A stretch of 64,000 nucleotides of DNA from an uncultured Pseudobdellovibrionaceae bacterium (GTDB lineage Bacteria; Bdellovibrionota_B; Oligoflexia; Oligoflexales; Bog-1112): positions 3,849-67,848 of the forward strand of contig CAZWOL010000006.1 of NCBI GenBank assembly GCA_964635325.1, in the 5' to 3' direction. A model generated the notes under the pieces. That model was not told where the DNA came from. It made no database searches and worked only from the letters and a program-made list of their open reading frames with translations. How positions within the stretch are numbered: the first letter of the stretch is position 1; each line of letters opens with the position of its first letter. The position numbers and the translations under genes were made by a program. This document shows positions 8,252 through 63,019 of this stretch, one piece after another.

Positions 8252-8273
8252 ACTCAGCATGAGACGATTCTAT

Positions 8274-8627: not shown

Positions 8628-8746
8628 GCTAACCTCCTAAGGCCAGGGGCGCCACTTTGGAGGCGAAGGGCACTATGCCTACCTCACGAAAGAAGCGATC
8701 AAAGAATCCCTAAATTTATAGCACGGTTTTTTATGGGTAGGCACGG

Positions 8747-9986: not shown

Positions 9987-10156
9987 TTCACCGAACTCCC
10001 GGTTTACAAATATCCAAGCTTGGCACACTTATGACACTGCTTCTATAGTGTCGCATGTTCGCTTTTACCTTGTAGCCTGTCGAAAATGCCGTATAAATTT
10101 TGCCTAGCTCGATGTACGAGTATCTGTCCATTGGTCTGTTTGTCGAAGGAATATTT

Positions 10157-28999: not shown

Positions 29000-30253
29000 A
29001 TGCAACGAACCTCAACCAATGTCATCGGCGCTTTGTTACTCCTTGGGATCACCCCTCTGATATCACTATGCACACCAGCAAGCGTCCAATCTATCGACAA
29101 ATCCTCAAAAACAGTGGGAACCTCTCTAGCGGAACATGCCAGTTCAAGCACATCAACCGAGATCGAAACACGTCCATCTGTTTCTGCAAATGAAATTGAT
29201 ACGGATGAATTTATGATTCGTAGAATAAGCGTTGGAATGGAAACCTATATCAACTCTCAGACACCGGTTGTGAATTTTGAAGTGCCAAAGAATGCAGATT
29301 GGGTGGAAATCACTCGCTGTTCGACCAACCTAAGCATCCGTGGAATTAGCAATACAACACGCATCGAAGATATAGAACTTGCTAACCTTAGCCCACTTGA
29401 AGAAGAACAATTATTCAAAAACAATGACTATTGGAACATCGCAAACAAAAGCGGCTGCGAACAAGTAACGTCCGGTACTGTGATTCCCAATTTTTACGAT
29501 TCATGGGCACCGAGTGGGAGCTTTCGTTATCTACTTCGGGCTTGCGTGAGTGCTGACCGTCTCACAGATACGACAATCATAGGTAATCGCAATTGCTCGA
29601 GACAGATCGCAGTTTCCGGTCCAACGCTCGACTATGTAAACACGCGTGAGAAAGCTCAAAAAGATGCGCTATCTGATGCAAACGTTGCATCGTCTGAAAT
29701 TCTTGCAATTCTACGCACCGCAAAACAACAGGCTGATACATACGCCTGTTACATACAGTGGTGCGAATGCGGAACAACCGCAAATGACCAGTCCATCTGC
29801 CAAAGGGACGAAAAAGGTCTGCCTAAGAGCTGCGATAATGGAGAATACGCTCGACAGGTCGACAAAAAGAAAAAAGATGCAGTCACTATGCTTGTCGCAA
29901 TTGGACTTGATATTGCTCTTGCTGCAGCCACAACACCCTCTATTGGACCCCTTTCTCTATTGATGAATAGCGTTGCTATTAGTGGTATGTCTTTTAGTGT
30001 TATGTTCAAATCATTAGTAGTACAGACACAAGACTTCCCTCGTGTCTGCAGCAAGGGCATTGCTCTAGACTCTCAAATGTCGACAACAGCTAAAGCTGTG
30101 CAAGCTGCCAAAGCTAAGTACGATTACAGCATGTGCAAAGTGCAGTCCATCAGCGCACAAACAGGAGCTGCCGCAGGGACAGATGCTGCTGCAGGCGACA
30201 ACAAATTGGATTGTAGCGGCACAGACACAACTGGAGGGGGACAGAACCAATGA
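29000..30253 (+). CDS. Exported Cys-rich protein of unknown family, paralogue A (417 aa)
   Basis: N-terminal signal sequence (ALLLLGITPLISLC) and an S/T-rich linker. Conserved block SGSFRYLLRACVSADR..NRNCS is shared with the next ORF. Gly/Ala-rich hydrophobic stretch MLVAIGLDIALAAATTPSIGPLSLLMNSVAISGMSFSVMF and an Ala/Gly/Thr-rich tail. Confidence 0.7.
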   Translation: MQRTSTNVIGALLLLGITPLISLCTPASVQSIDKSSKTVGTSLAEHASSSTSTEIETRPSVSANEIDTDEFMIRRISVGMETYINSQTPVVNFEVPKNADWVEITRCSTNLSIRGISNTTRIEDIELANLSPLEEEQLFKNNDYWNIANKSGCEQVTSGTVIPNFYDSWAPSGSFRYLLRACVSADRLTDTTIIGNRNCSRQIAVSGPTLDYVNTREKAQKDALSDANVASSEILAILRTAKQQADTYACYIQWCECGTTANDQSICQRDEKGLPKSCDNGEYARQVDKKKKDAVTMLVAIGLDIALAAATTPSIGPLSLLMNSVAISGMSFSVMFKSLVVQTQDFPRVCSKGIALDSQMSTTAKAVQAAKAKYDYSMCKVQSISAQTGAAAGTDAAAGDNKLDCSGTDTTGGGQNQ

Positions 30254-31599
30254 AACTAAAGATCAAAAACTCTCTGTCTCAATTTGTTTTAACAGGACTG
30301 ATTGCTAGTAGCGCATTCTTCACGTTTGCATGCACACAATCTTCAAATACAAATAAAACAACAAATAGCTCTGGAGTGCAGCCCAAAACATCTCTGGGTA
30401 CTGATGGATCCTCAACATCAAGCGACACTTCGACAGATACTACACTCGCTTCAATAAATCCAACGACAGCTTCTGCTTCGATCGACAGCAAAGTCAATAT
30501 GACTGTATCTGATGTAGTTAATGACAGCAGCATTCTTTTCCCAACCCTAACCATCAACAAAGTTACTGCAGACTTCATTCGTCTCCTACGCTGTCCAGCA
30601 AGCTACGAGTTTCAAACTCTCAGTGGTAAAAAAATTCGTGGTGCAAACATGAGTTCTCTCACTATAGTAGAACGCAAATATGCATGGAGCGATGCTACCG
30701 GTGATAATCGCAAGTGTAAGATCGTTGCATCCTACATCAATAGCCCGACATACATCGATATTACACCTAGCTCCGGAAGTTTTTTCTATGTCGCAAACCC
30801 TTGCGTAACCCAAGCACGATCAACAACTGGACAAGAAGAGTGTAGCTATGACCTATCATTTTCAGAGTCCGTAATCAGTTATGAAAACACACTTATAGAC
30901 AAAATACGCGACCAAGCCATAGCCCTCTCTAAGGATCAAGCAATTCTGAATGCGGCTATCGATGATGTCCGCATAACCGCAAAAAAACTAGAAAATAGCA
31001 TCAACGCGTGCCAAGAATACTTTGCTTTTACAGAAACCCAAAAATCGATACGCAGCGGACTTATTATGCTTGGTATTAATATCGTTGGTTCCGTACTTGG
31101 GGGTGTGCTTTTTGGTCCGAATGGAGCAATAATGGTCGGAATGATGACGCAGCTCATGGGAGCCGAGATGCTCAAACCACTGCTTGGACTAGAAACAGGC
31201 TTTGACACCTGTCTAAGTGGTGAAGAATCCGTTGCTCAGCAAGGACTCACAGATCAAAAAGCGATCGACAAAGCACGACAATTCGCACAAATGTATGAAG
31301 AAAAATTCAATGTTCGCGAAACCATAAATCATCTCACCACACTGCTTGCAGATCCACAGGCTGCGGACCCATCGACAACACCACCGACTCCTGCGAGTCC
31401 TGGAGGAACAATTGCACAAGCAATTGCCCGCATGAAGAAAACGATGGATGAAATGCATGCACTCGATGCTAGGATAACCTCTGCAAATGTAGCTGTCGCA
31501 AAAGGGAATAAATTTGTCGAAAAAATCAAAGAGCAGCCTGCAAACAGTGACGGAACTCTACCGTTTGATATCTCTTCGCTATTTTCTACAGCTCAATAA
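30250..31599 (+). CDS. Putative lipoprotein of unknown family, paralogue B (449 aa)
   Basis: The ATG overlaps the upstream stop (ATGA, 4 nt). Lipobox-like AFFTFAC and an S/T-rich linker. Block SGSFFYVANPCVTQAR..QEECS is paralogous to ORF A. Glycine-zipper-like stretch GLIMLGINIVGSVLGGVLFGPNGAIMVGMM. Confidence 0.7.
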   Translation: MKLKIKNSLSQFVLTGLIASSAFFTFACTQSSNTNKTTNSSGVQPKTSLGTDGSSTSSDTSTDTTLASINPTTASASIDSKVNMTVSDVVNDSSILFPTLTINKVTADFIRLLRCPASYEFQTLSGKKIRGANMSSLTIVERKYAWSDATGDNRKCKIVASYINSPTYIDITPSSGSFFYVANPCVTQARSTTGQEECSYDLSFSESVISYENTLIDKIRDQAIALSKDQAILNAAIDDVRITAKKLENSINACQEYFAFTETQKSIRSGLIMLGINIVGSVLGGVLFGPNGAIMVGMMTQLMGAEMLKPLLGLETGFDTCLSGEESVAQQGLTDQKAIDKARQFAQMYEEKFNVRETINHLTTLLADPQAADPSTTPPTPASPGGTIAQAIARMKKTMDEMHALDARITSANVAVAKGNKFVEKIKEQPANSDGTLPFDISSLFSTAQ

Positions 31600-41134: not shown

Positions 41135-42655
41135 TTAGAGAGATTGAAAATCCAGACAAGCTTGGACCATAGTGCGAAGCCCAAACGTCGATGCTCCGAC
41201 CGTTGGAAAACCAAGCGCCCTGCAGTCCCACGCTGTTCCTGCAATATCCAGATGCGCCCACTTTGTGTCTCCAACAAATGCTTTTAAAAACGCACCTGCA
41301 ACTGAAGCTTTTGCTCCAGTTGAATCAGCTGATGTGTTTTTGTAGTTTGCCACAGTAGATTTGAGATCCTTATCCAACTCAGGCCACATAGGAAGCTGCC
41401 ATAACGGCTCACCTACTTTTTCTGAGACACTGAGAAGGTGCTTAGCCAAGGGTTGCGAGTTTGCAAACAGGCCAGCACCCGCATGTCCCAGAGCAATGAT
41501 AACCGCACCTGTTAGAGTCGCTGCATCAACCATAAACTCTGGCTTGTAGCGTTTCACTGTATAATGCAAGAGATCCGCTAAGACGAGACGTCCTTCCGCA
41601 TCGGTATTCATGATTTCGATCGACTTACCATTCATCGCTTTCACAATGTCCCCAGGACGAGTTGCTCCATTGAATGGCATATTTTCAACCGCACCAATTA
41701 TACAGACAACATTTGTAGGAGGTTGAATTTGACCAAGCACATAAGCTGCACCCAATACAGCAGCACCACCGGCCATATCGTATTTCATCTGCTCCATCCC
41801 AGAAGCAGATTTAAGACTGAGCCCCCCCGAATCAAAGGTAAGCCCTTTTCCAAGCAGAGCTACGGTTTTGGATGGATCCTTACCTTTGATCTCAAGGACA
41901 ATTAATTTAGGATCAACACTAGTTCCCTTAGCTACACTTGCAAAAGAGCCCATGCCGAGGGCTTCGATCTCACTTCGACCACGCACCTCGCAAGTAATAC
42001 CAAGATCCTTTGCCATATCACTTGCAATCTCAGCAAACTTCTCAGAATTTAACCAATTGGGCGGAGCATCGCTGATCATACGCATCAGGACTCCCGCCTC
42101 CGCCATCACCCGATATTTTTTTTCAACCTCGGGTTGTACATTTGCACCTAAAAAAGATACTTGCTTCGGCAACGAACATTTTGCTTCTCCAACATCTTTA
42201 AACGACTCCAGGTTGTAGAAACTTTGAACGAGTCCCTCCCAAATATCGAAGGAACTCAGTTGCGCTCCCGCACAAATCACAAGACTTTCTACGCAGAGAT
42301 TTCGCAGGACAAAGGCTGCTTCTGTCCCCAACTGCCGACCTTTTTGCGCCTGACTCACGTTCAAACTTGTGATGGGAACCAACAGCAATGAAAGGCTCTG
42401 CACAGAGATTAATACTGGTCCAGCTTGTGGGCGCCAGCCTAATTGAGCGCACTGATCTTTGATCATTTGACATAAATCAGCGCTAAGACCTGAGACATCG
42501 AGTTCAAATTTTTCTGGAGTAGATTGCGACTGAACAGACACTATATGATGCGCTCCGGGGACCAGTTCCGCGGAAGTGCTAATATCTGTACGACCGATCC
42601 ATGAGTAAACTGCAGGCAAGAGATCTCGCCACTGTGCTTGTGATCTTTTTTTCAA
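41135..42655 (-). CDS. pepA: Leucyl aminopeptidase (M17, PepA)
   Basis: 506 aa. Contains LLGKGLTFDSGGLSLK and NTDAEGRLVLAD, the M17 signature blocks. Confidence 0.92.
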   Translation of the reverse strand: MKKRSQAQWRDLLPAVYSWIGRTDISTSAELVPGAHHIVSVQSQSTPEKFELDVSGLSADLCQMIKDQCAQLGWRPQAGPVLISVQSLSLLLVPITSLNVSQAQKGRQLGTEAAFVLRNLCVESLVICAGAQLSSFDIWEGLVQSFYNLESFKDVGEAKCSLPKQVSFLGANVQPEVEKKYRVMAEAGVLMRMISDAPPNWLNSEKFAEIASDMAKDLGITCEVRGRSEIEALGMGSFASVAKGTSVDPKLIVLEIKGKDPSKTVALLGKGLTFDSGGLSLKSASGMEQMKYDMAGGAAVLGAAYVLGQIQPPTNVVCIIGAVENMPFNGATRPGDIVKAMNGKSIEIMNTDAEGRLVLADLLHYTVKRYKPEFMVDAATLTGAVIIALGHAGAGLFANSQPLAKHLLSVSEKVGEPLWQLPMWPELDKDLKSTVANYKNTSADSTGAKASVAGAFLKAFVGDTKWAHLDIAGTAWDCRALGFPTVGASTFGLRTMVQACLDFQSL

Positions 42656-42741
42656 GTTGCCTCCAGTGCATATAATATTTGGTGTACTCTTAACTATCTA
42701 CACGTTGCAGAACTTTCGGTACAAGAGAATTCTGCAAATGA

Positions 42742-45065
<2,324 letters not shown>

Positions 45066-45309
45066 GCCCTACTTTGGTCTATAAGATCTTAGCATTCCTA
45101 CGTCCAGACAACGCCGATGATTTATGCAATACTATCAGCATATTATATTAGCGCTCCTGCGACAAAAGGACCCCGCCCTATAATGAAAAATGAATTCCGC
45201 GGGCGGGCTCAGTGCTATAATGATGATTATACCGCGCGCAAGAAGCCGGATACCCATAAACAATGGCACCCAAATATGGATGCCCCACGCAACTAACAGG
45301 AAGATAAAT

Positions 45310-45831
45310 ATGACTGGAATCGTTATTAGCCAGAAGGTGGCTATACTTATTGACGGCAACAACATCGAACGCAGCCTACATTCCATCACAGACGATGAGG
45401 GAGTCATGTTGAATTTTGACTCTATAGTTCCCCGTCTTCTAGAAACTCGAGAACTAACCCGACTCATTTATTTCCGTGAAGGCAAAGCAATCTCTTCTAA
45501 ATTAGCAGAACGCCTCCACAAGCACTACTACGGCTCTGTGATCCCATGCCACAAATCTGCAGATATTCCGCTTAGCATCATGGCAACTCAATTAGCTGCT
45601 AAAGTAGACACGATCATCATCATGTCGGGAGATGCTGATTATATTGAGCTCGTCCGCCATCTTAAATCGGAAGGCGTACGTGTTGAGATCGCATCGGTAG
45701 CAGAAACTACTGCAAATATTTTGATTGAAGAATGCCACTTCTTTCACCCACTTAAGCAAGATGATTGGTATTCACTTTCATACGGAGCCAAAAAGAAACC
45801 AAGTGATTCACGACAGCGTTCTCATCGCTAG
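45310..45831 (+). CDS. NYN/LabA-like domain protein (173 aa)
   Basis: The ATG at 45310 is preceded by AGGAAG. VAILIDGNNIE and IIIMSGDADYIELVRHLKSEGVRVEIASV match the NYN/LabA pattern (DG.N ... SgDsDf.pl...lr..G..V). Confidence 0.75.
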   Translation: MTGIVISQKVAILIDGNNIERSLHSITDDEGVMLNFDSIVPRLLETRELTRLIYFREGKAISSKLAERLHKHYYGSVIPCHKSADIPLSIMATQLAAKVDTIIIMSGDADYIELVRHLKSEGVRVEIASVAETTANILIEECHFFHPLKQDDWYSLSYGAKKKPSDSRQRSHR

Positions 45832-45836
45832 TTGGA

Positions 45837-46985
45837 TTGGATATGATACGCTCACTGGACCTTCGCCTCTCATTTTTAAAAACGTGTGACGCAAAGGAGG
45901 TTCAACATCTCCAATCTTTGCTGCAAAATATTTTTGCCTCTACCGAGCAGCATCACGGTGAAAGCGAACTGGCCTACTTAGGCTTCGACCTACTCTACTG
46001 TTTGCTAAAACATCGCAACTGGATTGCAAATCCTCTTTTCCAACACCTTCTGCTTCATCATTTGATCAACGACTTCCGTACAGATCGAGTATGGGCTGAG
46101 CATTTTTTAAGTTCAGCATTGCCTCCATTAGGCCAAAAAAAATTTCACCCAGCCTACGCTGAGGAGCGTACCTTTCTCCTTTACTTGCTAGTTTTGGTAT
46201 TGAATTGTCGCAACCCAGACTGTCTTACAGAAGAAATTGGTCTCGGTTCGAGCATTTTGCGTCTGATTCGTGATGCACTGACTCAGACACGTTCTGAGAA
46301 CACTATTGTGTTTGGATCAACTCTCACAACAGAGTCCTTAGAAATTCTCGAAGAGTTGGCGGAAGACTATCTTAAAAATCCGTCGATCACTAATGTCTAT
46401 CCCATTTACTTTGCTCTTTTAGCTAGTGAAGAAAATTGGAAAGACAGAGATACAATGCAGCTTGCTAAAGACATATTTGAAATTTTACTTCATATAGGGC
46501 AACGCAAATCTCTGACTGAGGTGGAGTTACGCGAAAAGCTTGAAGCAACACGCCATGGCTTAGGTCAGCAATCAAACACAATCCTACGTTTTCTTAAGGC
46601 TCAGCGTTTTGTTTTTGAAATTTCATCAACTCGACGCATTCAACTCACGCAGCACGGATACGAGCAAACTGCAGATGCCTACGCAAGAAAACAACACGGC
46701 ATGCAAGTTTCTGCAGATACATTTTATGGACTTCATCCCAATTGGCAACTTGCCCTTATTGAGACATGGCCGTTAGAGCAAGCTGCAGATCTGTGGACCT
46801 GTCTAAAGCTTGCAAACTATATACCTCCGCGTAGTTTTGATCTCGTTTGCAAGCGCTTTCAAAATGTGATTCAAAGCATAGATTGGGAGCCTTGGCTTGC
46901 AAAAATGGCTATTTTTCACCCACATAAGAATCTAGCTTCCTTTACAGAACCCACGAAAAATGCTAATGCTCTTTCAATACCTTAA
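45837..46985 (+). CDS. Hypothetical helical protein (about 380 aa), possible internal winged-helix segment
   Basis: Start is TTG 45837 or ATG 45843, 6-12 nt after the NYN stop. No known motif. The segment KSLTEVELREKLEATRHGLGQQSNTILRFLKAQRFVFEISSTRRIQLTQHG looks wHTH-like. Confidence 0.6.
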   Translation: MDMIRSLDLRLSFLKTCDAKEVQHLQSLLQNIFASTEQHHGESELAYLGFDLLYCLLKHRNWIANPLFQHLLLHHLINDFRTDRVWAEHFLSSALPPLGQKKFHPAYAEERTFLLYLLVLVLNCRNPDCLTEEIGLGSSILRLIRDALTQTRSENTIVFGSTLTTESLEILEELAEDYLKNPSITNVYPIYFALLASEENWKDRDTMQLAKDIFEILLHIGQRKSLTEVELREKLEATRHGLGQQSNTILRFLKAQRFVFEISSTRRIQLTQHGYEQTADAYARKQHGMQVSADTFYGLHPNWQLALIETWPLEQAADLWTCLKLANYIPPRSFDLVCKRFQNVIQSIDWEPWLAKMAIFHPHKNLASFTEPTKNANALSIP

Positions 46986-47005
46986 TAGAAGCGAAGTGAG
47001 AAACT

Positions 47006-48484
47006 ATGCAGCTCGATAAAAAATCGTCTCCGTTGCGCCATTCTCAAGTTCTTCAAAATGGGAATGATACTGGTTTAGATTTGCATATTTTGGAACAGCA
47101 TTGCTCGCGCTTTAAAAAATTTAAAGAAAATGGAATGAGAAATTTCTCGTTCCCAATCAAAGATACTTGTCGTATTGACAATGGTCGCATAGTTCCCTAT
47201 GCAGCATTACAAAATTTTCCTGAAAACTATACGAATGTGATTAGCTTTATCCCTGCTGCAGGATCATCTACACGCTACATTCAACCTATTTATAACTTAA
47301 TAGAATCGACGGACCCCAACGAGCTCCAAACACGTCTTGAAGCAACGCAATGGGTTTTGCCACCTCAGCCTGATCACACCAAAGGAGACTTAGGCCATCT
47401 TATCGGATTAGCAAAAGGCCTTTTTCCTTGTGTATGCGAAGGGCATTCGTTTCTTCGACTTAAATTTCTTGAACAAAGAGCTTTGGGAAACATTCTTAAA
47501 ACAGTCTGCGTAGCGCCCAAAAACCAAAGCGAGATATTTGCCAAACATGCACAGTCTTGGGGATGGAAAAACGACGACCTCCTCGTTTTAGAGCAGGGAA
47601 CACAGCTGTCAACACCCCGCTTGGATGCCAAGGGACATCTCATCCGTGAAGCTAATGAAATCTCTTTGGCACCCGCAGGTCACGGCTCTTTAATGCGCTT
47701 GTTCCCTAAAATCCAAGAACGTTTTCCAGATGCTCAAACACTCTTTATCCGCAATATCGACAATGTGATTGGATGCAAAGAAGACGCTCTAACAGCGAGT
47801 CGACGCTTTCTCGGAGCTCATCACTTTGCCCTCAAGTGTTTGCAAAACATTCGCACAGCATTAGCAAATAAAAATTTGAATGATGCAACTCACGAAGCAC
47901 AACAGATTCTGGAATGTTTTCCTAAACGAGCACTGAGCTCAGAAGAAGACAGATTCGTTGGCAGCCAACCACAGCAAGAACAACCGCTCTGGTCTCTGCT
48001 GCTGAGTCTGTTTCAAACCCCTTTGGGGCTTTGTCTGAAGTCCAACCTTCTTCAACTATTTGAGCGTCCTCTAAACTTTATGGCGCAGGTTCCCAACTCG
48101 GGTCACGATCAGGGAGGAATGCCAGTCCTAATTTCAACTCCACTGGGAGATCAAGCGATCTGTTTGGAGGGGCCACATATTTCTCCTGTGGATCAAGAAC
48201 GGCTTCGAGACCCTAAATTCGCAACGCATTTCAACCCTGTCTTTGCTGCAGTTGAACTGCATGCCAAGCTGGAAAACTACCAACTCGACAATAGTCCATA
48301 TTGGATATTTGCTGAGAAACAATGGCAGGGTCAAAATGTTTATTATCATGAATCTCTGTTGTACGAATTGATCGGCAACAGTGAAAACGCAAACCTAATT
48401 TTCATCGAACTACCCCGAGTGATTTTCAACCCGCATAAAACGCTGGATGATAGCATCGGACGTAGCCTCGAACATTGGATGTGA
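47006..48484 (+). CDS. UGPase-like nucleotidyltransferase-fold protein (DUF4301-like), 492 aa
   Basis: The blocks FIPAAGSSTRY, APAGHGSLM and LFIRNIDNV parallel the remembered UDP-sugar pyrophosphorylase blocks (LNGGLGTSMG, PxGHGD, SNxDNLGA). The family assignment is from memory only. Confidence 0.55.
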   Translation: MQLDKKSSPLRHSQVLQNGNDTGLDLHILEQHCSRFKKFKENGMRNFSFPIKDTCRIDNGRIVPYAALQNFPENYTNVISFIPAAGSSTRYIQPIYNLIESTDPNELQTRLEATQWVLPPQPDHTKGDLGHLIGLAKGLFPCVCEGHSFLRLKFLEQRALGNILKTVCVAPKNQSEIFAKHAQSWGWKNDDLLVLEQGTQLSTPRLDAKGHLIREANEISLAPAGHGSLMRLFPKIQERFPDAQTLFIRNIDNVIGCKEDALTASRRFLGAHHFALKCLQNIRTALANKNLNDATHEAQQILECFPKRALSSEEDRFVGSQPQQEQPLWSLLLSLFQTPLGLCLKSNLLQLFERPLNFMAQVPNSGHDQGGMPVLISTPLGDQAICLEGPHISPVDQERLRDPKFATHFNPVFAAVELHAKLENYQLDNSPYWIFAEKQWQGQNVYYHESLLYELIGNSENANLIFIELPRVIFNPHKTLDDSIGRSLEHWM

Positions 48485-48494
48485 GGCCTTAGCA

Positions 48495-49424
48495 GTGCAA
48501 AAGACCGTTATACTTCTCAACCCTGCAGCTGCAGGTGGACGCTCAGCACTTCGCTTCAAGCGTATTCAAGACAAAATCGACTTTCTCTTTCCGAAAGTTC
48601 CGGTGAGAGTCTCCGAACGTCAGGGTCATATGACCGAACTCGCTCGTCGCTGTGCACACGAAGGCATAGAGCGCATCATTGGCGTTGGTGGTGATGGCAC
48701 CTTCAACCAGATTGTGAATGGGCTCTTTGAACATCAAAAGCCCATCAATCCAGATCTCGTCTTAGGAACACTTCCCATAGGAACTGGAAGTGACTTTATT
48801 CGTAGCTTGGGTATTTCAAGCGCCTTGGGCGAAGCTCTATCGGTTCTGCACAGGGGCAAAGTAGCAAGTGTCGACATAGGTCATGTGCGATTGTGTGGCT
48901 TTGATGGCAAAGAAAAAGAGCACTACTTTCTTAACATACTTTCGTGTGGAATGAGTGCCGACATTGCGTTACGAGTGAGCCAATCTTCTGCATGGGGTGG
49001 GCCGTTTTTTCGCTACCTCCGCAATTCACTCGCAGGAATTCTGAGCTATGACGGCAAAAACACTGAACTCCACTACCACGGAAATGGGACAGATTACAAA
49101 GGCACCTTCACCTTTCTAGTACTCGCCAATGGTCGCTATTTTGGAGGAGGCATGTTCGCAGCTCCACAAGCACAGCTTGATGATGGAAAGCTTCAAGCTG
49201 TGCTTATCAAACATATGTCTAAGCTTGCATTGCTCAGAGCCTTTCCTTCGATTTATAGAGGTACGCATCTAAACCTCCCTGAGACTTTGAGCTGTCAAAA
49301 TGAGAGTGCGGACGTTAGTTCTACGGGACGTGTTAATGTTGAGTCCGATGGGGAATCTATCGGCACGCTACCGATGAAAGTCACCTGTCTACGCAAATCT
49401 CTTAAGGTGATTGTTGGTACCTAG
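48495..49424 (+). CDS. Diacylglycerol-kinase-family lipid kinase (YegS/BmrU-like)
   Basis: Contains VILLNPAAAGG and IIGVGGDGTFNQIVNG, the DAGK catalytic-domain motifs. The GTG at 48495 is preceded by GAGG; the ORF-track start 48447 would overlap the upstream gene. Confidence 0.85.
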   Translation: MQKTVILLNPAAAGGRSALRFKRIQDKIDFLFPKVPVRVSERQGHMTELARRCAHEGIERIIGVGGDGTFNQIVNGLFEHQKPINPDLVLGTLPIGTGSDFIRSLGISSALGEALSVLHRGKVASVDIGHVRLCGFDGKEKEHYFLNILSCGMSADIALRVSQSSAWGGPFFRYLRNSLAGILSYDGKNTELHYHGNGTDYKGTFTFLVLANGRYFGGGMFAAPQAQLDDGKLQAVLIKHMSKLALLRAFPSIYRGTHLNLPETLSCQNESADVSSTGRVNVESDGESIGTLPMKVTCLRKSLKVIVGT

Positions 49425-50507
49425 AAAAACTTTCCACGCCTTTAAATCCAAAGATGCCATTAGCTGAGATGCTAGCTCATCTTTCTTGAGCCATTGTATG
49501 TCTTGAAACAAAGACTCTTTGGCCCATCTTCTCTCCCAAGTAACCACTAAAACTTCTACTGAAATTTTATGCTTCGTGATGGAGTGTCGAAAGCTCCCCA
49601 GTGACTGCCCACACGGCAAAGCAATAGCTTCTCCATCGACACGAAAGCGATTCTGCTGTGCAATTTCAGTAACAAAACCTAAGGAACCACGCAGAAATTT
49701 CGCATTATTAGAGCGCCTACTAAGACCAAAGAGTCGACCCTTTTGCAAAATTTTGATACGCAGTTTTACACTCTCTTGAGCTTCTCGCACCTTAGGTCCC
49801 GGTGCAAGATGGGTGCTTTGACGCTCACGAGCAAGACAAATATTTTGAATTGGACAAATTTCACACGATGGATTCAAAGGTCGACAGATTTTCTGACCAA
49901 GCTCCATCAAAGCTTGGTTATAAGAACCAGGATCAGATGTGCAGACCAGAACATTAGCAAGCTCTTGGAGCTGCTTGCGAAGGATGGGATCATTCACAGG
50001 TCGTTGAATATCAAAAATTCGAGCGAGCACTCTATAAACGTTTCCGTCTAAAACGGCTCGAGATTCATTTAAGGTAATACTACTGATTGCTGCTGCAGTG
50101 TATTCTCCGACACCTGCGATTTTTAACCACTCCTCATAGTTGCGTGGCCATAGAATCTCTCGGCCCTCAGATTTTTCGTACAGCTGTTGCATACCACGAT
50201 GCATATTCGCAAAGCGCCGATAGTAGCCAAGCCCTTGGATCTCACTGCGAATCTCAGTTTCCGAGGCTTGTGCCAACGATTGCAAGTTGGGGAAACGTTG
50301 CACAAATCGAATATACTTAGGAATCACTGCAGCAAGGGTCGTTTGCTGCAACATAATTTCACTCACCCAAACATGATAAGGATCACGCAATGTATCCCAC
50401 AACTCACGCCAGGCATGTGCTGTCTTGTTGCTTTTATACCAAAGCAAAAGAGGATCTCGCAATTCTTGCACTACAAAATGGAGAGATAAGGACGGGGTTG
50501 GCTTCAT
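49389..50507 (-). CDS. mutY: A/G-specific adenine DNA glycosylase (MutY)
   Basis: 372 aa. Contains VSEIMLQQT, the HhH block IAGVGEYTAAAI, the 4Fe-4S loop C-x6-C-x2-C-x5-C (CRPLNPSCEICPIQNIC) and a C-terminal NUDIX-like domain. Confidence 0.9.
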   Translation of the reverse strand: MKPTPSLSLHFVVQELRDPLLLWYKSNKTAHAWRELWDTLRDPYHVWVSEIMLQQTTLAAVIPKYIRFVQRFPNLQSLAQASETEIRSEIQGLGYYRRFANMHRGMQQLYEKSEGREILWPRNYEEWLKIAGVGEYTAAAISSITLNESRAVLDGNVYRVLARIFDIQRPVNDPILRKQLQELANVLVCTSDPGSYNQALMELGQKICRPLNPSCEICPIQNICLARERQSTHLAPGPKVREAQESVKLRIKILQKGRLFGLSRRSNNAKFLRGSLGFVTEIAQQNRFRVDGEAIALPCGQSLGSFRHSITKHKISVEVLVVTWERRWAKESLFQDIQWLKKDELASQLMASLDLKAWKVFLGTNNHLKRFA

Positions 50508-50513
50508 GAAAAT

Positions 50514-50900
50514 TTAGGTACTCGTTTTAGCTCCCGACTTAGTAGAAGCTTTTTTGGCTTTAGGTCGGGCTGACTTGTTTTTATTCGTAGCAACTTTAGC
50601 TTTGCCTGGTGTTTTTTTCTTCAGAGATTTGGTTTTTTTCTTGAAACCTTTTTCAAGCTTATCCACATCGATGCCAGCTTTTTTGGCATTCTTACGAAGC
50701 TCTTCCACAAAATTATGATAGGTTGGTTCCATTTTTTTTAACTTCGCAGCGAGAACTTTCGTCAGCTCAGCTTTGGTCTGTTCGAGATTGGTTTTGAGAT
50801 CCAAGCTTTTGATTTTTTCAAGAAGGTCATTACCCTCTTTCTGGACGCTATCTTGCAATTTGCCGATATCGTTTTGAATGCGCGCAATCAACTTCTTCAT
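50514..50900 (-). CDS. Hypothetical amphipathic-helix protein with a Lys-rich histone-H1-like tail (128 aa)
   Basis: N-terminal about 85 aa are helical and K/E/L-rich. The tail is KKKTKSLKKKTPGKAKVATNKNKSARPKAKKASTKSGAKTST. Confidence 0.6.
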   Translation of the reverse strand: MKKLIARIQNDIGKLQDSVQKEGNDLLEKIKSLDLKTNLEQTKAELTKVLAAKLKKMEPTYHNFVEELRKNAKKAGIDVDKLEKGFKKKTKSLKKKTPGKAKVATNKNKSARPKAKKASTKSGAKTST

Positions 50901-50990
50901 AAAAATCTCTCCATTTTTTGGATTCTTTCATCCTTTTTACGGCTAGCCTATGTTTTGGTCAATGCAATTTTTCTGCAAAAAACAAACTCA

Positions 50991-51848
50991 TCATACAGAA
51001 TAGGAATAAACACCTTGCTTGGTCTTGCGTCCAAGTCGACCAGCATCAACATACTGAATCAGTAACGGACAAGGTCTATACTTTGCATCACCTAGTCCTT
51101 TATGAAGGACTGTCATAATGGCCAAACATGTATCAAGTCCGATAAAATCGGCAAGCTGCAATGGTCCCATAGGTTGGTTGGTACCTAATTTCATACCAAG
51201 GTCAATGTGCTCTGGAGACGCTATTCCCTCCATTAAAACATAAAACGCTTCGTTGATCATGGGCATAAGAATGCGATTGATGATAAAACCTGCATAGTCT
51301 TTGCTACGCACTGCTTCTTTTTCTAGTGACTTAACAAATGCAAGCACACGCTCCGTAAGAGTCTCATGTGTTTGTAGAGCAGGAATCACTTCGACCAAAT
51401 TCATTAGAGGAACTGGATTCATAAAATGAAGGCCGATCGCACGTTCTGGCTTAGCGAGACAGGCCGCCAATTTGGTGATAGAAATTGAAGACGTATTGCT
51501 TGCAATTACACAGTCCTTAGAAACAACACTCTCAATCTGACGTAAGACACGCTCTTTGAGTTCGATTTTCTCATCGACCGCTTCCACAACAAGATCACAA
51601 CTCTTTAGAGCTGAATAGTCTTCTGTGAAATGAATTGCAGCAATCGCATCTTTTTGCTGAGTGCTAATTTTTTCTTTCTCGAGTAACTTTGCCGCAGAGC
51701 GTTGTATGCCTGCCTTGGCGACATCTAACTGTTGTTTTTTGATATCCACCAACACAACACTTGCACCATAAGTTGCACAGACTTGGGCAATACCAGACCC
51801 CATTTGACCTGCACCTACAACTCCGACAGTACCAAACGCTAGTGACAT
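50991..51848 (-). CDS. hbd: 3-hydroxybutyryl-CoA / 3-hydroxyacyl-CoA dehydrogenase
   Basis: 285 aa. Rossmann block VGVVGAGQMGSGIAQV, plus NTSSISIT and HFMNPVPLM. Confidence 0.92.
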   Translation of the reverse strand: MSLAFGTVGVVGAGQMGSGIAQVCATYGASVVLVDIKKQQLDVAKAGIQRSAAKLLEKEKISTQQKDAIAAIHFTEDYSALKSCDLVVEAVDEKIELKERVLRQIESVVSKDCVIASNTSSISITKLAACLAKPERAIGLHFMNPVPLMNLVEVIPALQTHETLTERVLAFVKSLEKEAVRSKDYAGFIINRILMPMINEAFYVLMEGIASPEHIDLGMKLGTNQPMGPLQLADFIGLDTCLAIMTVLHKGLGDAKYRPCPLLIQYVDAGRLGRKTKQGVYSYSV

Positions 51849-57811: not shown

Positions 57812-58792
57812 ATGCGGAATTGGAATCTCGTAAGCTTAGGTTTGGGCTTAGCTTTAAGCGGATTTGCACTCGGAAACTACAGCTTTGACAACGAAGACAA
57901 TCTTTATAATCAACGAAATAGTTCTAATGACCAGGTCAATTTTGATGCAGCTCAAAAAGCATTTGATGCTTATGCGGCTATCTACAATAACAAAAGCCAC
58001 AGCACTGAAGACAGGTTGTATGCTTTCACCCAAATGGGTCGCTCACAAATCTATGCAGGCGGCATGCTCAAAGGTGCAAATTTGCAAGCGCGCAAAGAAG
58101 CACTCACAAAATGTTACAAGATTGCCCAAAGCGCTCGCAAAGAATTTGTGGGAAAACAAGAACCACATTATTTCTATCTAGGATGCATGGCTGCGCTAGC
58201 AAAAATTTCATCAGTTGGCACTCGTCTTAAACTTGCTCTAAAGCTCCCCTCAGCACAAAAAGAAGCCCTAGCTGCCAGCACTGTCGACGGCAAATTGGTC
58301 GGTGGTTTTGAAGGCGGAGGATCCCTTCGTGTCTCTTCAGGAATCGCATCCAACATCAAAGCCAAAGGTGTACCAGGTGGCTTCTACAATCCCAAACGTG
58401 CGATCGAACTCGCCGAAATCGCTCTAAACACTCCGACTATGCAGTCACATCCTTTCGAACCAATGAGTGGCAAAGACTATTTTGACAACTACTACTATCT
58501 CGCTTTTGCTTACTCTTCGCTGGGTATGGAAGAAAAAAACTTCAGTCATGTTGAAACCGCTTACAAAATCGTCACCGATCAAGTGAAAGCAATTGATGAC
58601 CTTATCGAAGCCAATGAGCTTCCAAAGGGACGTGAACCTGAAACAATGCACTACAGAACGGAAATGCTTGCGATCAAGTCAAACATCGAGGCTTGTCGCT
58701 CACATGCAAGTTGGGTTAGCTGCTTAGACGGTCGTCTCAACAAAGTGTCTGAAGAAATCGAAGCTAGCACAACAGAACACGACGACCTTTAG
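57812..58792 (+). CDS. Exported all-helical (TPR-like) protein of unknown function (326 aa)
   Basis: SD AAGGAG upstream and signal peptide MRNWNLVSLGLGLALSGFALG. Helical-repeat-like composition. First gene of a three-gene string with 35- and 18-nt spacers. Confidence 0.7.
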   Translation: MRNWNLVSLGLGLALSGFALGNYSFDNEDNLYNQRNSSNDQVNFDAAQKAFDAYAAIYNNKSHSTEDRLYAFTQMGRSQIYAGGMLKGANLQARKEALTKCYKIAQSARKEFVGKQEPHYFYLGCMAALAKISSVGTRLKLALKLPSAQKEALAASTVDGKLVGGFEGGGSLRVSSGIASNIKAKGVPGGFYNPKRAIELAEIALNTPTMQSHPFEPMSGKDYFDNYYYLAFAYSSLGMEEKNFSHVETAYKIVTDQVKAIDDLIEANELPKGREPETMHYRTEMLAIKSNIEACRSHASWVSCLDGRLNKVSEEIEASTTEHDDL

Positions 58793-58827
58793 GCGAGACC
58801 CCTAATCGAGAAAGGAAAGGAGCTCAT

Positions 58828-60060
58828 ATGTGGCACAATTTTCAGAAACTACAGTTTGCATTTTTGGGGCTGATCACAGCAGGGTCAGCCTATTCGATTG
58901 AGAACACAAAGGTACTTCCTAAGGGAGTCCGAAGTTTCAACATCAAAAGCGTGCAAACTTCTGTCGACCAAAAGACCGATGCCCAGGGCTTCTTTCACTC
59001 GATCGCAGAACCACTCGCGAAAGATTTCACCTTTCGTAAAGTGATTGAAGGTGAAAAAAACCCGACCAACCGCTTGCTACTGCAATCCTTTCTTCAGGGC
59101 AAATTTAGCGAAAGCGACAGTCTCGGCACTTTCTCCGCAGACATGAAAGGAAACATTCAGGTAACTGGAGGGATCTTCTCCTACGGTGCTACAGACAATC
59201 TAACACTTGCACTCGGCATCCCCTATTACCAAGCAAAAATGCATGTACGCATGGGTTTTAGAGCCTCTGAAAATGCTCAAAGATTTGTAGCAGCCCTAAA
59301 CGAACACGGAAACAATCAAACAGCAAAAGCACGTGAAGTTGCAGACAAATTAACTTTTGCTGTTCGTGAGTTGAATAAAAAACTCACTGACAATGGTTAT
59401 TCTGAAATTCAAGATTTTGAACGCTCCGGAATTGGGGATATCACCGTCGGTGCAAAGTATCTTTTTGTTGAACAAAGCTGGATAAAAACTGCAAATGCTT
59501 CAGGTGTAATCGCACCCACAGGATATGCTGGAGATCCCAACGTATTGGTAAATGTTCCTTTCGGCACTGGATCTTGGGGACTCTTCACAACATTTTATAC
59601 GGATGAATTTATTCGTGAAGATCTTTGGTTCAACCAATATGTAAAATACACCTACCAGGTTCCAACACATAAAAATGTACGCATGAAGACAGAAGATGAA
59701 TCTATAACAGTGCCTGAAGAACGTCTTGGATTCAAACCCGGCGATCGCTGGGAAGCTGGAGTTTCAACACAGTATGAGCCATGGTTTGGTCTTATGGCAG
59801 CTGTTGGGCTTAGCTATGCAGGGAAAAATGGGGATCGCTACGATACCGACAATTTAGTTTCGAAAAACGCTTTGGAAAAAGATGGATTCGAACGTGCATC
59901 ATTCTTAGAGGCTCGCATCGGATACCAAAGCATCCCAGCATTTAGACGTAAGGAAATTCCTGTACCGTTCGTTGTTTCTTTAGAAATGAAGCGACACCTT
60001 AGTAGTATCAATACAGTTGTCAAAGATCTTTACACTGCCGACTTCAGTCTTTACTTCTAA
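58828..60060 (+). CDS. Outer-membrane beta-barrel protein (MetA-pathway/transporter-like OMP), 410 aa
   Basis: SD AAGGAG, signal peptide FAFLGLITAGSAYS and alternating beta-strand pattern. The SGIGDITVGAKYLF block resembles the GxGD...KY motif of that OMP family. C-terminal aromatic end ...DFSLYF. Confidence 0.7.
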   Translation: MWHNFQKLQFAFLGLITAGSAYSIENTKVLPKGVRSFNIKSVQTSVDQKTDAQGFFHSIAEPLAKDFTFRKVIEGEKNPTNRLLLQSFLQGKFSESDSLGTFSADMKGNIQVTGGIFSYGATDNLTLALGIPYYQAKMHVRMGFRASENAQRFVAALNEHGNNQTAKAREVADKLTFAVRELNKKLTDNGYSEIQDFERSGIGDITVGAKYLFVEQSWIKTANASGVIAPTGYAGDPNVLVNVPFGTGSWGLFTTFYTDEFIREDLWFNQYVKYTYQVPTHKNVRMKTEDESITVPEERLGFKPGDRWEAGVSTQYEPWFGLMAAVGLSYAGKNGDRYDTDNLVSKNALEKDGFERASFLEARIGYQSIPAFRRKEIPVPFVVSLEMKRHLSSINTVVKDLYTADFSLYF

Positions 60061-60078
60061 GAACAAGGGACAATACAT

Positions 60079-61905
60079 ATGAACTACAATTATCAAAAAC
60101 GATTCGTCCAACTGAGTAGCTGTATTTTTGCAGTATATTTTTCTGCCTGTGGCCCACGAGATCCCAAGATTCAGGAGCAGGAGCGTTCTGTTGTTAAACT
60201 GCCTGAATTTGCAGAGGCATCGCAAATCTATAGCTTTCTTCATAAAGACGCTCACTTACGCAGCGATCTCAGCAAGGATTTTTTTGAAGGCACTCTCATA
60301 CTCTGGAAGGATGAGGCGGCTAAAGAAAAACTCGCTGATGTTCTTGAATCAGCACGTCAAACACGAGAAGACAAGGCTTATATAGCAGCAACCAAAAAAG
60401 CAATTGCCATTGAAAAAGCAGCCCTCGACAAAGATGTCGACAACAAGCTTAGAGCTCTCAACAATGATCTTCGACAAAAAGAGTCAGACCTGGCAAATTT
60501 GAAAAATTCTCCAGAGTATCGCAAGCAACAAATGGAGGAGATGGACTTTTATCGCAAGCAAAGCCCTCAGCTTCTTGCGGACAACCAAGCTTGGCTCGAT
60601 AAAAACAAGACTTCTACTAGCGATGAAGCCTTCCAAGATTACTGCGATGTACGACTTCTAGAGTTTGCGATCTCCTCAATCTTACGCAACCAAAGCTTTA
60701 CAGAGCGACCTAAAGTTCTCGGTATCTGCGAAGGTTATTTTGCATCACGAAATCTCTTTCAAGGAACAAGCTGCGCAACCGAACAGACGGGTCGTGGAAA
60801 TTACTTCCAATGCATTTGGGAAAACGGGATACTCAAAACCTTTAGTTTACTTAAAAAAAACGGCAGCAAAGCTGATAATGATGAACAAAATGAGTTTATA
60901 AGCAAACTTGACGAACTCAAGACTTGGATAACCGCTCAGACCAATCTCAATCGTGAAGTTTTCACCCTAAAACGCGTTGGAACACAATTCAAAATAGAAC
61001 TGGATCGCAGCGGAGCAAAAAAACGGTTGGTCAAAATCCACAACGATGGTCCCACATCTTTTTTGCAAGATGAAACAAGTGTCGTCTTTCTCAAAACCCT
61101 TACAAAAGAACGTACAAGCGGCACTCATACGTATTCATTTCACGACATTCTATTCAACACTCATATACTTACGGAACTTGACTCAATCCCAACAATGGGA
61201 GAATCCGACAAAGCCGAGTTTGGCACCCAGATTCGACAATTGGATGTACTTTTCGGGCAACAAAGCCCAAACATGAAAGCAGATAGAGATTTACAGAAGC
61301 AATTGATAAGCGATATTCAAAAAATCAAGAATCAAATCGTTATCGAATCAGAACGTAAAAATGCGAGTTCACCACGAAGTCCAGAACTCAAAAATGCGCA
61401 GGAAAAACTTTTGACGACTGAGCAAAAAACAGCAGCCATGCTTAAAGGTGAAAACCTTGCTCATCTAGTACTTAAAAGCCAAGTTACTTTTGAAAGTATT
61501 GACGACACTCTTATCGCTGTCACCGTCAATCTCAATAGCGGGGCAAACCATGACAAAGATTTACGTGGCTGCTTCAATAAAAGCACAGGCGCCAACCAAA
61601 GATGCCCAAGCTCTCACGCAATTGGATCACCTGCAGAGCTTAGCTTCAACCAGAACAGCGGACTATTGACCGTTCGCTCGGTCTTGCAAAATGCAGTTGA
61701 GCTAGGATGTCGCTTCAACGACGGAGATGCGGACTTTCAGTTGATTCCCGAAGTAGCTCTTACAAATCGTACACTTTACTTGGAGCTTTACCCTGAGTTA
61801 TTCACCAATGACTTAAAACTACTTGGGGGCTTAGCTCAGGTGAAAGATGGAAATTCGATTTTATTTCAGGGAAACATGTCACTTACAAGCAAGACCAGCG
61901 ACTAA
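60079..61905 (+). CDS. Coiled-coil lipoprotein of unknown function (608 aa)
   Basis: Lipobox AVYFSACG. Long K/E/Q-rich helical segments and several Cys pairs. No family recognised. Confidence 0.7.
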   Translation: MNYNYQKRFVQLSSCIFAVYFSACGPRDPKIQEQERSVVKLPEFAEASQIYSFLHKDAHLRSDLSKDFFEGTLILWKDEAAKEKLADVLESARQTREDKAYIAATKKAIAIEKAALDKDVDNKLRALNNDLRQKESDLANLKNSPEYRKQQMEEMDFYRKQSPQLLADNQAWLDKNKTSTSDEAFQDYCDVRLLEFAISSILRNQSFTERPKVLGICEGYFASRNLFQGTSCATEQTGRGNYFQCIWENGILKTFSLLKKNGSKADNDEQNEFISKLDELKTWITAQTNLNREVFTLKRVGTQFKIELDRSGAKKRLVKIHNDGPTSFLQDETSVVFLKTLTKERTSGTHTYSFHDILFNTHILTELDSIPTMGESDKAEFGTQIRQLDVLFGQQSPNMKADRDLQKQLISDIQKIKNQIVIESERKNASSPRSPELKNAQEKLLTTEQKTAAMLKGENLAHLVLKSQVTFESIDDTLIAVTVNLNSGANHDKDLRGCFNKSTGANQRCPSSHAIGSPAELSFNQNSGLLTVRSVLQNAVELGCRFNDGDADFQLIPEVALTNRTLYLELYPELFTNDLKLLGGLAQVKDGNSILFQGNMSLTSKTSD

Positions 61906-61933
61906 TTTCAATGGAAGCTAAAGATCCGCAAAT

Positions 61934-63019
61934 CTAATACGGCCATGCACCTTGAAAGAAATAACGAACTGAGATTGAGGCAGAAATTGCTACAGTGAGC
62001 AGCACAAGAACCCCGAAGCCGACTCTTGCTTGTAACGTCTGAAATTTCGCAAACCAAACGTGTCCGTACTCCCCGAGCGCAAACCACATAGGGAAAAGTA
62101 CTGCTGCAAAACGCAGAGCTGAAGGGAAGTTGCTACCCTGAAGAGGCCAGAGTAAAACACTACCAAGAACATATGCATAGATCGCTAAATTTTTTCGCCA
62201 GTTCTGTCGAATTTTGACAAAGCAGATTGCAACGCTCATCCAGAGCAAACATGCACGCCAGAAATTCGACACACTCAGCCAGACTAGTTTGGAGAAATAT
62301 TCGCGCAACTCAATATGGCCCCAATGATCTTGTGCTTTGACAGATGCTAGAACATCTCCCGTTTTCCAATATAAGAAGCTCAACCACAAAGCATAAAGGG
62401 AAGCAGAAATGAATCCTGAACATAAAAAAATTCTAATGCGTGACCTTAGACTCAAACCAGGAGTCTGTAGACATAGCAACAATGCAATAGCTGCAGCACA
62501 GAGCACCCCCTGGTTACGAGTGAGAGCAGCAAGCCCAGCAAGCACGGAGGCGAAGACAATACGATTTTTAGTTGCAGAACAGAAAGCAAAGTATGTCAAA
62601 AACAGAAAGAGAGACTCTGTATGATTGGAAAAGAAGACCCACGATGCTGGCGAGAATGCGAGAAAAAAAAGTCCTAAAAGAGCTACACGCTGTCTTGCAG
62701 CATGAAAAAATACGATCGCAAAAAGTGTAAGAGAAAAAAAGCTTGCAAAGAATAGATGCATCGATATTGGAACAACAAGAAGCATCATTCTGAGTATAAG
62801 AGGATAAAGTGGATAGAAAGCAAAGGGAACATCGAAGGCCAGCCCTCGAGTTGGACTATAACCCTCTGTCGCTAGATGGGTGTACCAAAAAGAGTCCAGA
62901 TAACTCAGTTTCTGTTCTAACAAATTAAAATCAAACCCCACACTAATCAGGGCTATGGATATATGAAGCACCACATACAACGCAAATATAACCACAGCAA
63001 ATGGGACAGCCTTCTTCAT
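61934..63019 (-). CDS. Polytopic membrane glycosyltransferase, PIG-V/mannosyltransferase-like
   Basis: 361 aa, about 9-10 TM segments. The N-terminal loop LDSFWYTHLATEGYS resembles the D-S-x-W-Y-x-x-I-A-x-x-G-Y motif of PIG-V-like mannosyltransferases. Confidence 0.5.
   Translation of the reverse strand: MKKAVPFAVVIFALYVVLHISIALISVGFDFNLLEQKLSYLDSFWYTHLATEGYSPTRGLAFDVPFAFYPLYPLILRMMLLVVPISMHLFFASFFSLTLFAIVFFHAARQRVALLGLFFLAFSPASWVFFSNHTESLFLFLTYFAFCSATKNRIVFASVLAGLAALTRNQGVLCAAAIALLLCLQTPGLSLRSRIRIFLCSGFISASLYALWLSFLYWKTGDVLASVKAQDHWGHIELREYFSKLVWLSVSNFWRACLLWMSVAICFVKIRQNWRKNLAIYAYVLGSVLLWPLQGSNFPSALRFAAVLFPMWFALGEYGHVWFAKFQTLQARVGFGVLVLLTVAISASISVRYFFQGAWPY

Follow-up and report, generated by a model that had tools for sequence, protein, structure and literature searches.

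Whether four genes that follow one another closely on one strand work together as one system is a question raised by a string at positions 45310-49424 of a 64,000-nucleotide stretch of DNA from an uncultured Pseudobdellovibrionaceae bacterium (contig CAZWOL010000006.1, positions 3,849 to 67,848; hereafter the window, meaning the whole stretch analysed). According to the open reading frame (ORF) list, this string consists of four genes in a row on the + strand, encoding an NYN-domain protein, a 380-amino-acid protein without an assigned family that we refer to as UNK, a DUF4301 protein and a YegS/BmrU-type lipid kinase. An original prediction, made from the DNA letters, had suggested that the neighbouring nucleotidyltransferase and lipid kinase serve the synthesis of a lipid or small-molecule head group in activated or phosphorylated form, and had left their link to the NYN and UNK genes unexplained. 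Our results favour a different explanation, which we consider reasonably probable: UNK and DUF4301, a probable sugar-1-phosphate nucleotidyltransferase, form a conserved pair that lies beside an unrelated NYN gene and an unrelated kinase gene in a housekeeping block. The four genes are as follows:

45310-45831, + strand: NYN, 173 amino acids; its ATG is preceded by a GGAAG ribosome-binding site.
45843-46985, + strand: UNK, 380 amino acids from an ATG; an alternative TTG at 45837 would give 382 amino acids.
47006-48484, + strand: DUF4301, 492 amino acids, ATG start.
48495-49424, + strand: kinase, 309 amino acids from a GTG, with GAGG 8 nucleotides (nt) upstream.

DUF4301 as a divergent UDP-sugar pyrophosphorylase-like protein

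The Pfam family PF14134 (DUF4301) was matched by residues 198-482 of the 492-amino-acid protein, corresponding to its C-terminal half only (E-value (E) 2e-17; 63.7 bits against a gathering threshold of 27 bits), and was matched by all 28 Oligoflexia-type homologues whose alignment (A1) formed the basis of an AlphaFold model. This model had a predicted local distance difference test score (pLDDT) of 89.7 and a predicted template modelling score (pTM) of 0.90. When the model was searched against the PDB with Foldseek, the top 50 matches were all uridine diphosphate (UDP)-glucose pyrophosphorylases (UGPases) or UDP-N-acetylglucosamine (UDP-GlcNAc) pyrophosphorylases (UAPs), with E-values of 1.8e-14 to 2.7e-11 and a probability of 1.0, originating from human, yeast, plants, Leishmania, Aspergillus and Candida. 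First among them was 4r7p_A, with a template modelling score (TM-score) of about 0.5 at approximately 14% identity.

Profile searches of the PDB led to the same enzymes once the alignment had been broadened. The profile of the Oligoflexia-type sequences alone (A1) matched the glycine-rich loop of IspD (E 1e-3) and reached AGX1 only at an E-value of about 0.9. Significance for UGPases was attained only after the addition of canonical DUF4301 sequences from Bacteroidota, Desulfuromonadales, Nitrospirales and FCPU426 (A4; 31 sequences, 506 positions), when human UGP2 was matched at E 5.7e-7 and another five UGPases at E-values up to 0.0046. The conserved motifs of the window protein, and the UGPase and AGX1 segments paired with them in the profile alignments, are:

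Residues 81-90: FIPAAGSSTR, the glycine-rich loop motif.
Residues 136-139: AKGL; almost every homologue has PKAL here, and K137 is invariant; PKaL of the profile aligned with UGPase GPKSLI.
Residues 196-198: EQG; leQG of the profile aligned with UGPase FNQS and AGX1 FFQQG.
Residues 223-227: PAGHG; PaGHGaL of the profile aligned with UGPase PPGHGDIY and AGX1 PDGNGGLY.
Residues 247-253: FIRNIDN; FIRNIDNv of the profile aligned with UGPase FVSNIDNLG.
Residues 470-482: PRVIFNPHKTLDD; PRsvFnPvKtlkDll of the profile aligned with UGPase VPRSRFLPVKTTSDLL.

Within these motifs, R90, K137, Q197, G225-H226-G227, N250, D252-N253, K478 and D482 were invariant throughout A4. In the structures of UGPase and AGX1, the aligned motifs correspond to the lysine of the nucleotide loop, the glutamine and glycine that contact uracil, the histidine or asparagine that contacts the phosphate, the aspartate of NxDN and the catalytic lysine. 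The blocks FIPAAGSSTRY, APAGHGSLM and FIRNIDNV, which had originally suggested a UDP-sugar pyrophosphorylase-like DUF4301 protein, are all present, and their columns are invariant or nearly so in the family alignments. That assignment is borne out by the AlphaFold model, by Foldseek and by the motif-by-motif profile match to UGP2, and comparison with UGPase structures found both the nucleotidyltransferase fold and the active-site residues in the 492-amino-acid protein. In the domain searches, NYN, DUF4301 and DAGK_cat were each recovered for the respective proteins of the string, and the UDPGP family (PF01704) gave no match for the window DUF4301 protein.

DUF4301 therefore belongs, as a divergent member, to the superfamily of UDP-glucose and UDP-GlcNAc pyrophosphorylases and is a distant relative of its characterised enzymes (UGP2, Ugp1p and the plant and Leishmania UGPases; AGX1/UAP1). 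With these enzymes it shares the predicted fold of the catalytic core, a Rossmann-like nucleotidyltransferase with an N-terminal domain, and it keeps the glycine-rich loop, the PK lysine, the glutamine, GHG, NIDN and the lysine of PRxxFxPxK, but it differs from them in being bacterial (Oligoflexia), in its dedicated upstream partner gene and in its architecture. The A4 alignment ends at residue 420 of the 526 residues of UGP2, at profile position 498 of 506, and the window protein itself ends 10 residues past D482. Because the alignment ends so near the end of the profile, DUF4301 must lack the C-terminal left-handed beta-helix/oligomerisation domain of the UGPases and UAPs. Two insertions further set it apart, one that separates the loop arginine from the PK lysine by about 45 extra residues, and a long helical one after NIDN that comprises helices 259-352 in the model. 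The same protein shares 29 invariant columns with canonical DUF4301 proteins (Bacteroidota, Desulfuromonadales and others), whereas overall the Oligoflexia-type subfamily is only 17-23% identical to them and has a different, longer central helical insertion.

Since every catalytic element is kept, DUF4301 would most likely catalyse the reaction nucleoside triphosphate (NTP) + sugar-1-phosphate <-> nucleoside diphosphate (NDP)-sugar + pyrophosphate (PPi). Conservation of the glutamine and the GHG residues would make uridine triphosphate (UTP) the likeliest nucleotide. Neighbouring genes in canonical DUF4301 loci hint at glucan or sugar-nucleotide metabolism: a GlgX-type isoamylase gene lies downstream of DUF4301 in three Desulfuromonadales-type loci (L028 7790-9961, L035 7245-8561 and L042 6828-8921), and rfbB and rfbA lie downstream in an FCPU426 genome (L037 7354-9341), starting after 19 nt. 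Several Desulfuromonadales loci also carry genes for a TRAP transporter and a universal stress protein upstream of DUF4301.

The conserved pair and the UNK protein

To follow the string across genomes, we assembled a DUF4301-centred sample of 6 contig look-ups and 35 genome-collection loci, analysed by tblastn, profile searches and neighbour clustering, which yielded 23 Oligoflexia-type loci (21 of them assessable for UNK) and 17 canonical DUF4301 loci. An NYN-centred sample comprised 80 metagenome loci (L043-L122 range), all neighbours of which were clustered. UNK was found directly upstream of DUF4301 and on the same strand in 16 of the 21 assessable loci, and look-ups centred on UNK itself found DUF4301 downstream in three of three contigs, once with an intervening gene. 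NYN, in comparison, adjoined DUF4301 in 5/23 loci, which form a single shallow clade (the window, L002, L004, L005 and L008), and the kinase did so in only two (the window and L004). At canonical DUF4301 loci, UNK, NYN or the kinase was adjacent in none of the 17, and the UNK partner was found only with the Oligoflexia-type subfamily. On these counts, the conserved unit is the UNK-DUF4301 pair, which extends across Oligoflexia and Bdellovibrionota.

The complete four-gene string occurred only in the window and its nearest relative, L004, in which DUF4301 is 58%, UNK 47% and the kinase 70% identical to the window proteins, and a conserved four-gene operon was accordingly rejected. The co-conservation that one linked system would predict was looked for and not found in these samples. 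L008 (DUF4301 44% identical) has the order NYN-UNK-DUF4301, followed by a gene for a 91-amino-acid protein and then by TlyA, while L002 (49%) and L005 (46%) have NYN-DUF4301 without UNK and without the kinase; an additional fragment, L044, carries NYN-UNK. As UNK is absent from L002 and L005, it is not obligatory for the DUF4301 enzyme. In L005, MutY follows DUF4301 directly, and in L002 the slot between DUF4301 and mutY (7526-10354) contains four unrelated genes, of which two encode outer-membrane-like proteins, one a PIG-L deacetylase and one a 280-amino-acid protein. The DUF4301-mutY interval is thus a variable, lineage-specific slot in an otherwise syntenic block.

In more distant Oligoflexia and Bdellovibrionota, including the cultured Oligoflexus tunisiensis, whose DUF4301 orthologue is at L003 6001-7536, a gene for a giant protein on the - strand is followed by UNK, DUF4301 and a gene for a protein of about 90 amino acids on the + strand, then by TlyA (-) and a PilZ-domain response regulator. 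The giant protein exceeds 1,450 amino acids, has weak TPR matches only and is transcribed divergently from UNK-DUF4301, and the conserved protein of about 90 amino acids has no Pfam family. Genes for both flank the pair in most Oligoflexia loci, namely L003, L007-L013, L016, L017, L020, L025 and L123, for example:

L011 1-4503, - strand: giant protein.
L011 7654-7932, + strand: protein of about 90 amino acids.

A tblastn search of the window detected neither of these two proteins at E <0.01. TlyA and FapA are present there, rearranged to a position 5-8 kb upstream.

UNK itself matched no family in Pfam or NCBIfam. UNK shares 16-27% identity with its homologues, compared with 32-45% for DUF4301, and is a fast-evolving family. 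The word-indexed homologue search returned 3 and then 11 proteins, and because so few were found the structural model rests on a shallow alignment. This AlphaFold model (11 sequences; pLDDT 74, pTM 0.72) is all-helical except for a hairpin at residues 257-268, and is organised into an N-terminal helical domain, a putative MarR-like winged helix at approximately residues 204-283 and a short C-terminal helical tail. The invariant residues, W60, F111-L112 and G133-x-G135, all fall within the first of these domains.

The internal winged helix predicted for UNK is supported, though not proven, by two lines of evidence that are weak but agree with each other. Around the hairpin, at about residues 204-283, block-mean pLDDT rose to 82-93, and Foldseek, which gave no whole-fold match, returned local matches to the winged helices of MarR, MecI, IclR, RbkR and AspA, with probabilities of at most 0.94 and E-values of 0.19 or above. 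The UNK family profile, searched against the PDB, matched MepR and many other MarR regulators, all at the same profile positions (E 0.009-0.6). The earlier description of UNK as an all-helical protein with a possible winged helix is in keeping with these results: the model is helical with a hairpin, and the winged helix is weakly backed by Foldseek and by a profile E-value of about 0.009. In addition, the C-terminal part of the profile matched designed HEAT-like alphaRep proteins (E 5e-4 to 0.02); HEAT_2 was detected in 4/15 UNK members. Longer homologues carry the HEAT-like repeats in their tail, which is shortened in the window copy. Like the MarR regulators MepR and SlyA, UNK has a predicted helix-helix-helix-hairpin segment, but it differs from them in its length of 380-460 amino acids, in a novel N-terminal domain, helical and about 200 residues long, that holds the invariant positions, in the C-terminal HEAT-like repeats of many members and in showing no evident MarR dimerisation helices. 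Most likely, UNK would be a dedicated regulator of DUF4301, acting either by binding DNA or as a protein partner.

A related explanation, which we judge unlikely, is that DUF4301 uses its UGPase fold to nucleotidylate some other phosphorylated metabolite or a macromolecule, with UNK serving as a substrate-presenting or specificity subunit and not as a transcription factor. This would suit the low identity of DUF4301 to characterised UGPases, its large helical insertions and its missing C-terminal domain, and the role of UNK as a subunit would agree with the placement of its conserved residues outside the winged helix and with the HEAT-like protein-interaction repeats of its homologues. However, DUF4301 retains all of the nucleotide- and phosphate-contacting residues of UGPase/UAP, canonical DUF4301 genes adjoin glycogen-debranching and dTDP-sugar genes, and DUF4301 occurs without UNK in most phyla as well as in L002 and L005.

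NYN, the lipid kinase and transcription of the string

The identification of the first gene product as an NYN/LabA-type protein, with a PIN-like nuclease domain, was confirmed by Pfam (PF01936, E 3.5e-19; 70.2 bits against a gathering threshold of 24.2), with a full-length domain and the acidic motifs IDGNN and SGDADY in the sequence. Its closest solved structure is the uncharacterised Vibrio protein VPA0982 (2qip, E 0.0075). Protein identity reaches 96-99% with the orthologues of L002, L004 and L005, and 84-88% with that of L008, while enolase is 77-81% identical in the first three comparisons (72-81% with L008 included) and DUF4301 44-58% in the same pairs. At the DNA level, the third-codon positions of NYN are saturated (33-43% identity), a pattern in which purifying selection on the NYN protein appears to exceed that on a glycolytic enzyme. 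The orthologues are located at:

L002 5374-5895: NYN orthologue.
L004 4262-4786: NYN orthologue.
L005 5367-5891: NYN orthologue.
L008 4260-4751: NYN orthologue.

The same subfamily was present in at least 475 metagenome stretches, where it is mostly 63-73% identical to the window protein across unrelated contexts. With LabA-like NYN proteins (cyanobacterial LabA, VPA0982) the window protein shares the domain and its DGNN and SGDxD motifs, and it represents a stand-alone NYN in a distinct, very highly conserved subfamily, of which we know of no characterised member. Because the constraint is so strong, it suggests a core RNA-processing or complex-bound role. No DUF4301, UNK, kinase, M28 or MutY gene lay within 5 kb in 78 of the 80 NYN-centred loci, and clustering of their neighbours revealed no recurrent neighbour, the largest cluster covering 6/80 loci. 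NYN was rejected as a functional partner on these grounds.

Two small ORFs lie close to the NYN start. An antisense ORF of 110 amino acids (45135-45467, -) overlaps it, and the public assembly annotates an ORF of 59 amino acids (45117-45296, +) in the gap before NYN. Neither is conserved in the aligned relatives, and both are therefore probably spurious.

The lipid kinase was likewise correctly recognised as YegS/BmrU-type, both by Pfam (DAGK_cat E 3.8e-25, YegS_C E 2.4e-27) and by NCBIfam, where it passed TIGR00147 (YegS/Rv2252/BmrU) with 129.6 bits against a cut-off of 118.65; its translation contains GVGGDGT. It shares the architecture and the GGDGT motif of the YegS/Rv2252/BmrU kinases (E. 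coli YegS, M. tuberculosis Rv2252, B. subtilis DgkB and BmrU), but differs from them in its lineage-specific position beside DUF4301 and in falling below all equivalog cut-offs (PRK13057 141.6/274, YegS PRK13054 116.3/284, PRK13337 119.8/385 bits). As every equivalog cut-off was missed, its substrate cannot be assigned. The GTG start is favoured because the L004 orthologue is called at 310 amino acids with a 7-nt spacer; an alternative ATG at 48447 would give 325 amino acids and overlap DUF4301 by 38 nt. For NYN, a longer ORF from 45190 was rejected, having no support from orthologues.

Measurement confirmed the co-directional string with spacers close to those first reported (about 6-12, 20 and 10 nt): 5 or 11 nt between NYN and UNK, 20 nt between UNK and DUF4301 and 10 nt between DUF4301 and the kinase. 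Gene calls for the string are identical in the public assembly of the contig. Upstream, enolase and an M28 peptidase are encoded on the + strand, with a 244-nt gap before NYN; where the window has only this gap, the M28-to-NYN slot of L004 (3279-4049) and L008 (3300-4193) contains a gene for a ParA-like ATPase. The gap and the far end of the string contain the following features:

45186-45221, + strand: promoter-like element, composed of AAAAAnGAATTC (45186-45197), an 18-nt spacer including TGC, and TGCTATAAT (45213-45221).
49389-50507, - strand: MutY-like gene, converging on the string with a 36-nt overlap at its end.

TGCTATAAT is of the extended -10 type, and the element is positioned about 90 nt before the NYN start codon. 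An upstream alignment of the window with L002, L004 and L005 showed that AAAAA..GAATTC and (T/G)GCTATAAT or GATATAAT are kept amid diverged DNA. A generic promoter scan did not report the element because its -35 region is poor. It is probably the start of a transcript that reads through the string here, and no promoter- or terminator-like signals above shuffle expectation were found between the four genes. Co-transcription of all four in this genome is plausible judging from these features of the DNA. A structured RNA or riboswitch in 42000-51000 was rejected on the basis of an Rfam scan of that interval, which gave only a chance CRISPR-DR match (E 0.52) inside the DUF4301 coding sequence.

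In the close clade, the string is embedded in a syntenic block with FapA, TlyA/FtsJ, M17, enolase and M28 before it, and MutY, a 3-hydroxyacyl-CoA dehydrogenase, an E1 dehydrogenase component and MutS2 after it. This surrounding block is housekeeping in character.

Three broader proposals can be set against these data. We consider it quite unlikely that UNK and DUF4301 constitute an undescribed two-component nucleotidyl-transfer system of Oligoflexia/Bdellovibrionota, in which a truncated UGPase-like enzyme would need, or be gated by, a helical winged-helix/HEAT partner and would make an unusual nucleotide-activated compound, possibly as a substitute for a missing GalU-type UDP-glucose supply in these predatory or host-dependent bacteria, with the co-transcribed and almost invariant NYN protein as a core RNA-processing factor of the phylum.

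Distinctly improbable, in our assessment, is the head-group pathway when extended to all four genes as one unit, in which the NYN and winged-helix proteins would act as regulators or processors. The very short spacers, the lack of an internal terminator and the conservation of gene order, DUF4301 and kinase in L004 are all compatible with such a unit, and the PIG-L deacetylase in the slot after DUF4301 in L002 loosely fits a glycolipid theme, the PIG-L family including GlcNAc-lipid deacetylases. Yet adjacency of the kinase to DUF4301 is limited to the window and L004, NYN and DUF4301 persist in two close relatives (L002 and L005) that have neither UNK nor the kinase, and the L002 insert, with its signal-peptide and outer-membrane-like proteins, looks like an unrelated insertion. 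Nor is a link of the NYN genes to a DUF4301-kinase pathway supported, given that their adjacency to DUF4301 is limited to one shallow clade and that almost all NYN loci elsewhere are without the other genes. The pairing of nucleotidyltransferase and lipid kinase most probably reflects chance in recent gene order and not a pathway.

A defence or toxin module, with NYN as effector, the nucleotidyltransferase as signal generator and the kinase as a further component, is scarcely credible: NYN nucleases and nucleotidyltransferases do occur in some anti-phage systems and NYN had a weak PADLOC match (E 1.2e-4, 42 residues), but UNK, DUF4301 and the kinase had none, the block is stably syntenic and housekeeping, the extreme conservation of NYN is opposite to the rapid turnover typical of defence genes, and the nucleotidyltransferase fold is UGPase-type, not CD-NTase/Pol-beta. 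Membership in a known anti-phage system was rejected, as PADLOC returned nothing meaningful for the four proteins.

Interpretation of the locus

The reading that we prefer, a conserved UNK-DUF4301 pair beside unrelated neighbours, would explain the string as an operon-like run that is transcribed here from the conserved promoter before NYN without being one functional system. UNK would use its winged helix and helical domains to regulate DUF4301 or to act as its partner. NYN and the kinase would have independent functions, would merely be co-expressed here and would owe their position to local genome history, NYN as a strongly constrained, widespread stand-alone gene and the kinase as the current occupant of the variable DUF4301-mutY slot.

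Several observations weigh against this explanation. For the enzyme, TM-scores across the top 50 structural matches are modest (about 0.45-0.54), PF01704 was touched by only 3/28 homologues, all below threshold (best E 3.6e-4), and the nucleotide and sugar specificity is read from motif conservation alone. To our knowledge, no DUF4301 protein has a known biochemical activity, and a literature search on DUF4301 found no characterised member and a single paper that names the family, only in passing, in a metaproteome list. For the partner, the winged-helix scores are below threshold in both sequence (E 0.009) and structure (E at least 0.19), on a model with a pLDDT of 74, and UNK is absent from five loci, including the close relatives L002 and L005 that kept DUF4301. 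The samples consist mostly of metagenome-assembled genomes and are phylogenetically clumped. Finally, the short spacers in the window and L004 mean that the four genes are probably co-expressed there, and a lineage-specific functional link of DUF4301 to the kinase or NYN may exist in these two genomes.

Elsewhere in the window, a full-length TLC/NTT-type ATP/ADP transporter is encoded at 27162-28670 (-; PF03219, E 4.6e-131). Transporters of this kind are typically found in obligate intracellular bacteria and in plastids, and the presence of one hints that the organism takes nucleotides from a host or prey. Four consecutive large ORFs at 57812-63019 (326, 410, 608 and 361 amino acids) matched no Pfam family (E up to 1e-5) and lie in a stretch whose AT skew is unusually positive (0.12-0.21); ORFs of 417 and 449 amino acids at 29000-31599, another AT-skewed stretch, are likewise without a family.

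Taken together, the string itself is ordinary, and what is new lies at the level of annotation: the assignment of DUF4301, a truncated protein that keeps its active site intact, to the UGPase/UAP superfamily, and a family-less partner gene of DUF4301, with a putative winged helix, in one phylum. The unusually conserved NYN protein offers a further lead, separate from these, and may merit a study of its own. The neighbourhood result guards against over-reading the combination of a nucleotidyltransferase and a lipid kinase as a pathway. Although the practical yield is modest, amounting to a clear enzymology target and an improved annotation for a few hundred proteins, DUF4301 gains a testable biochemical assignment as a UDP-sugar-pyrophosphorylase-type nucleotidyltransferase.

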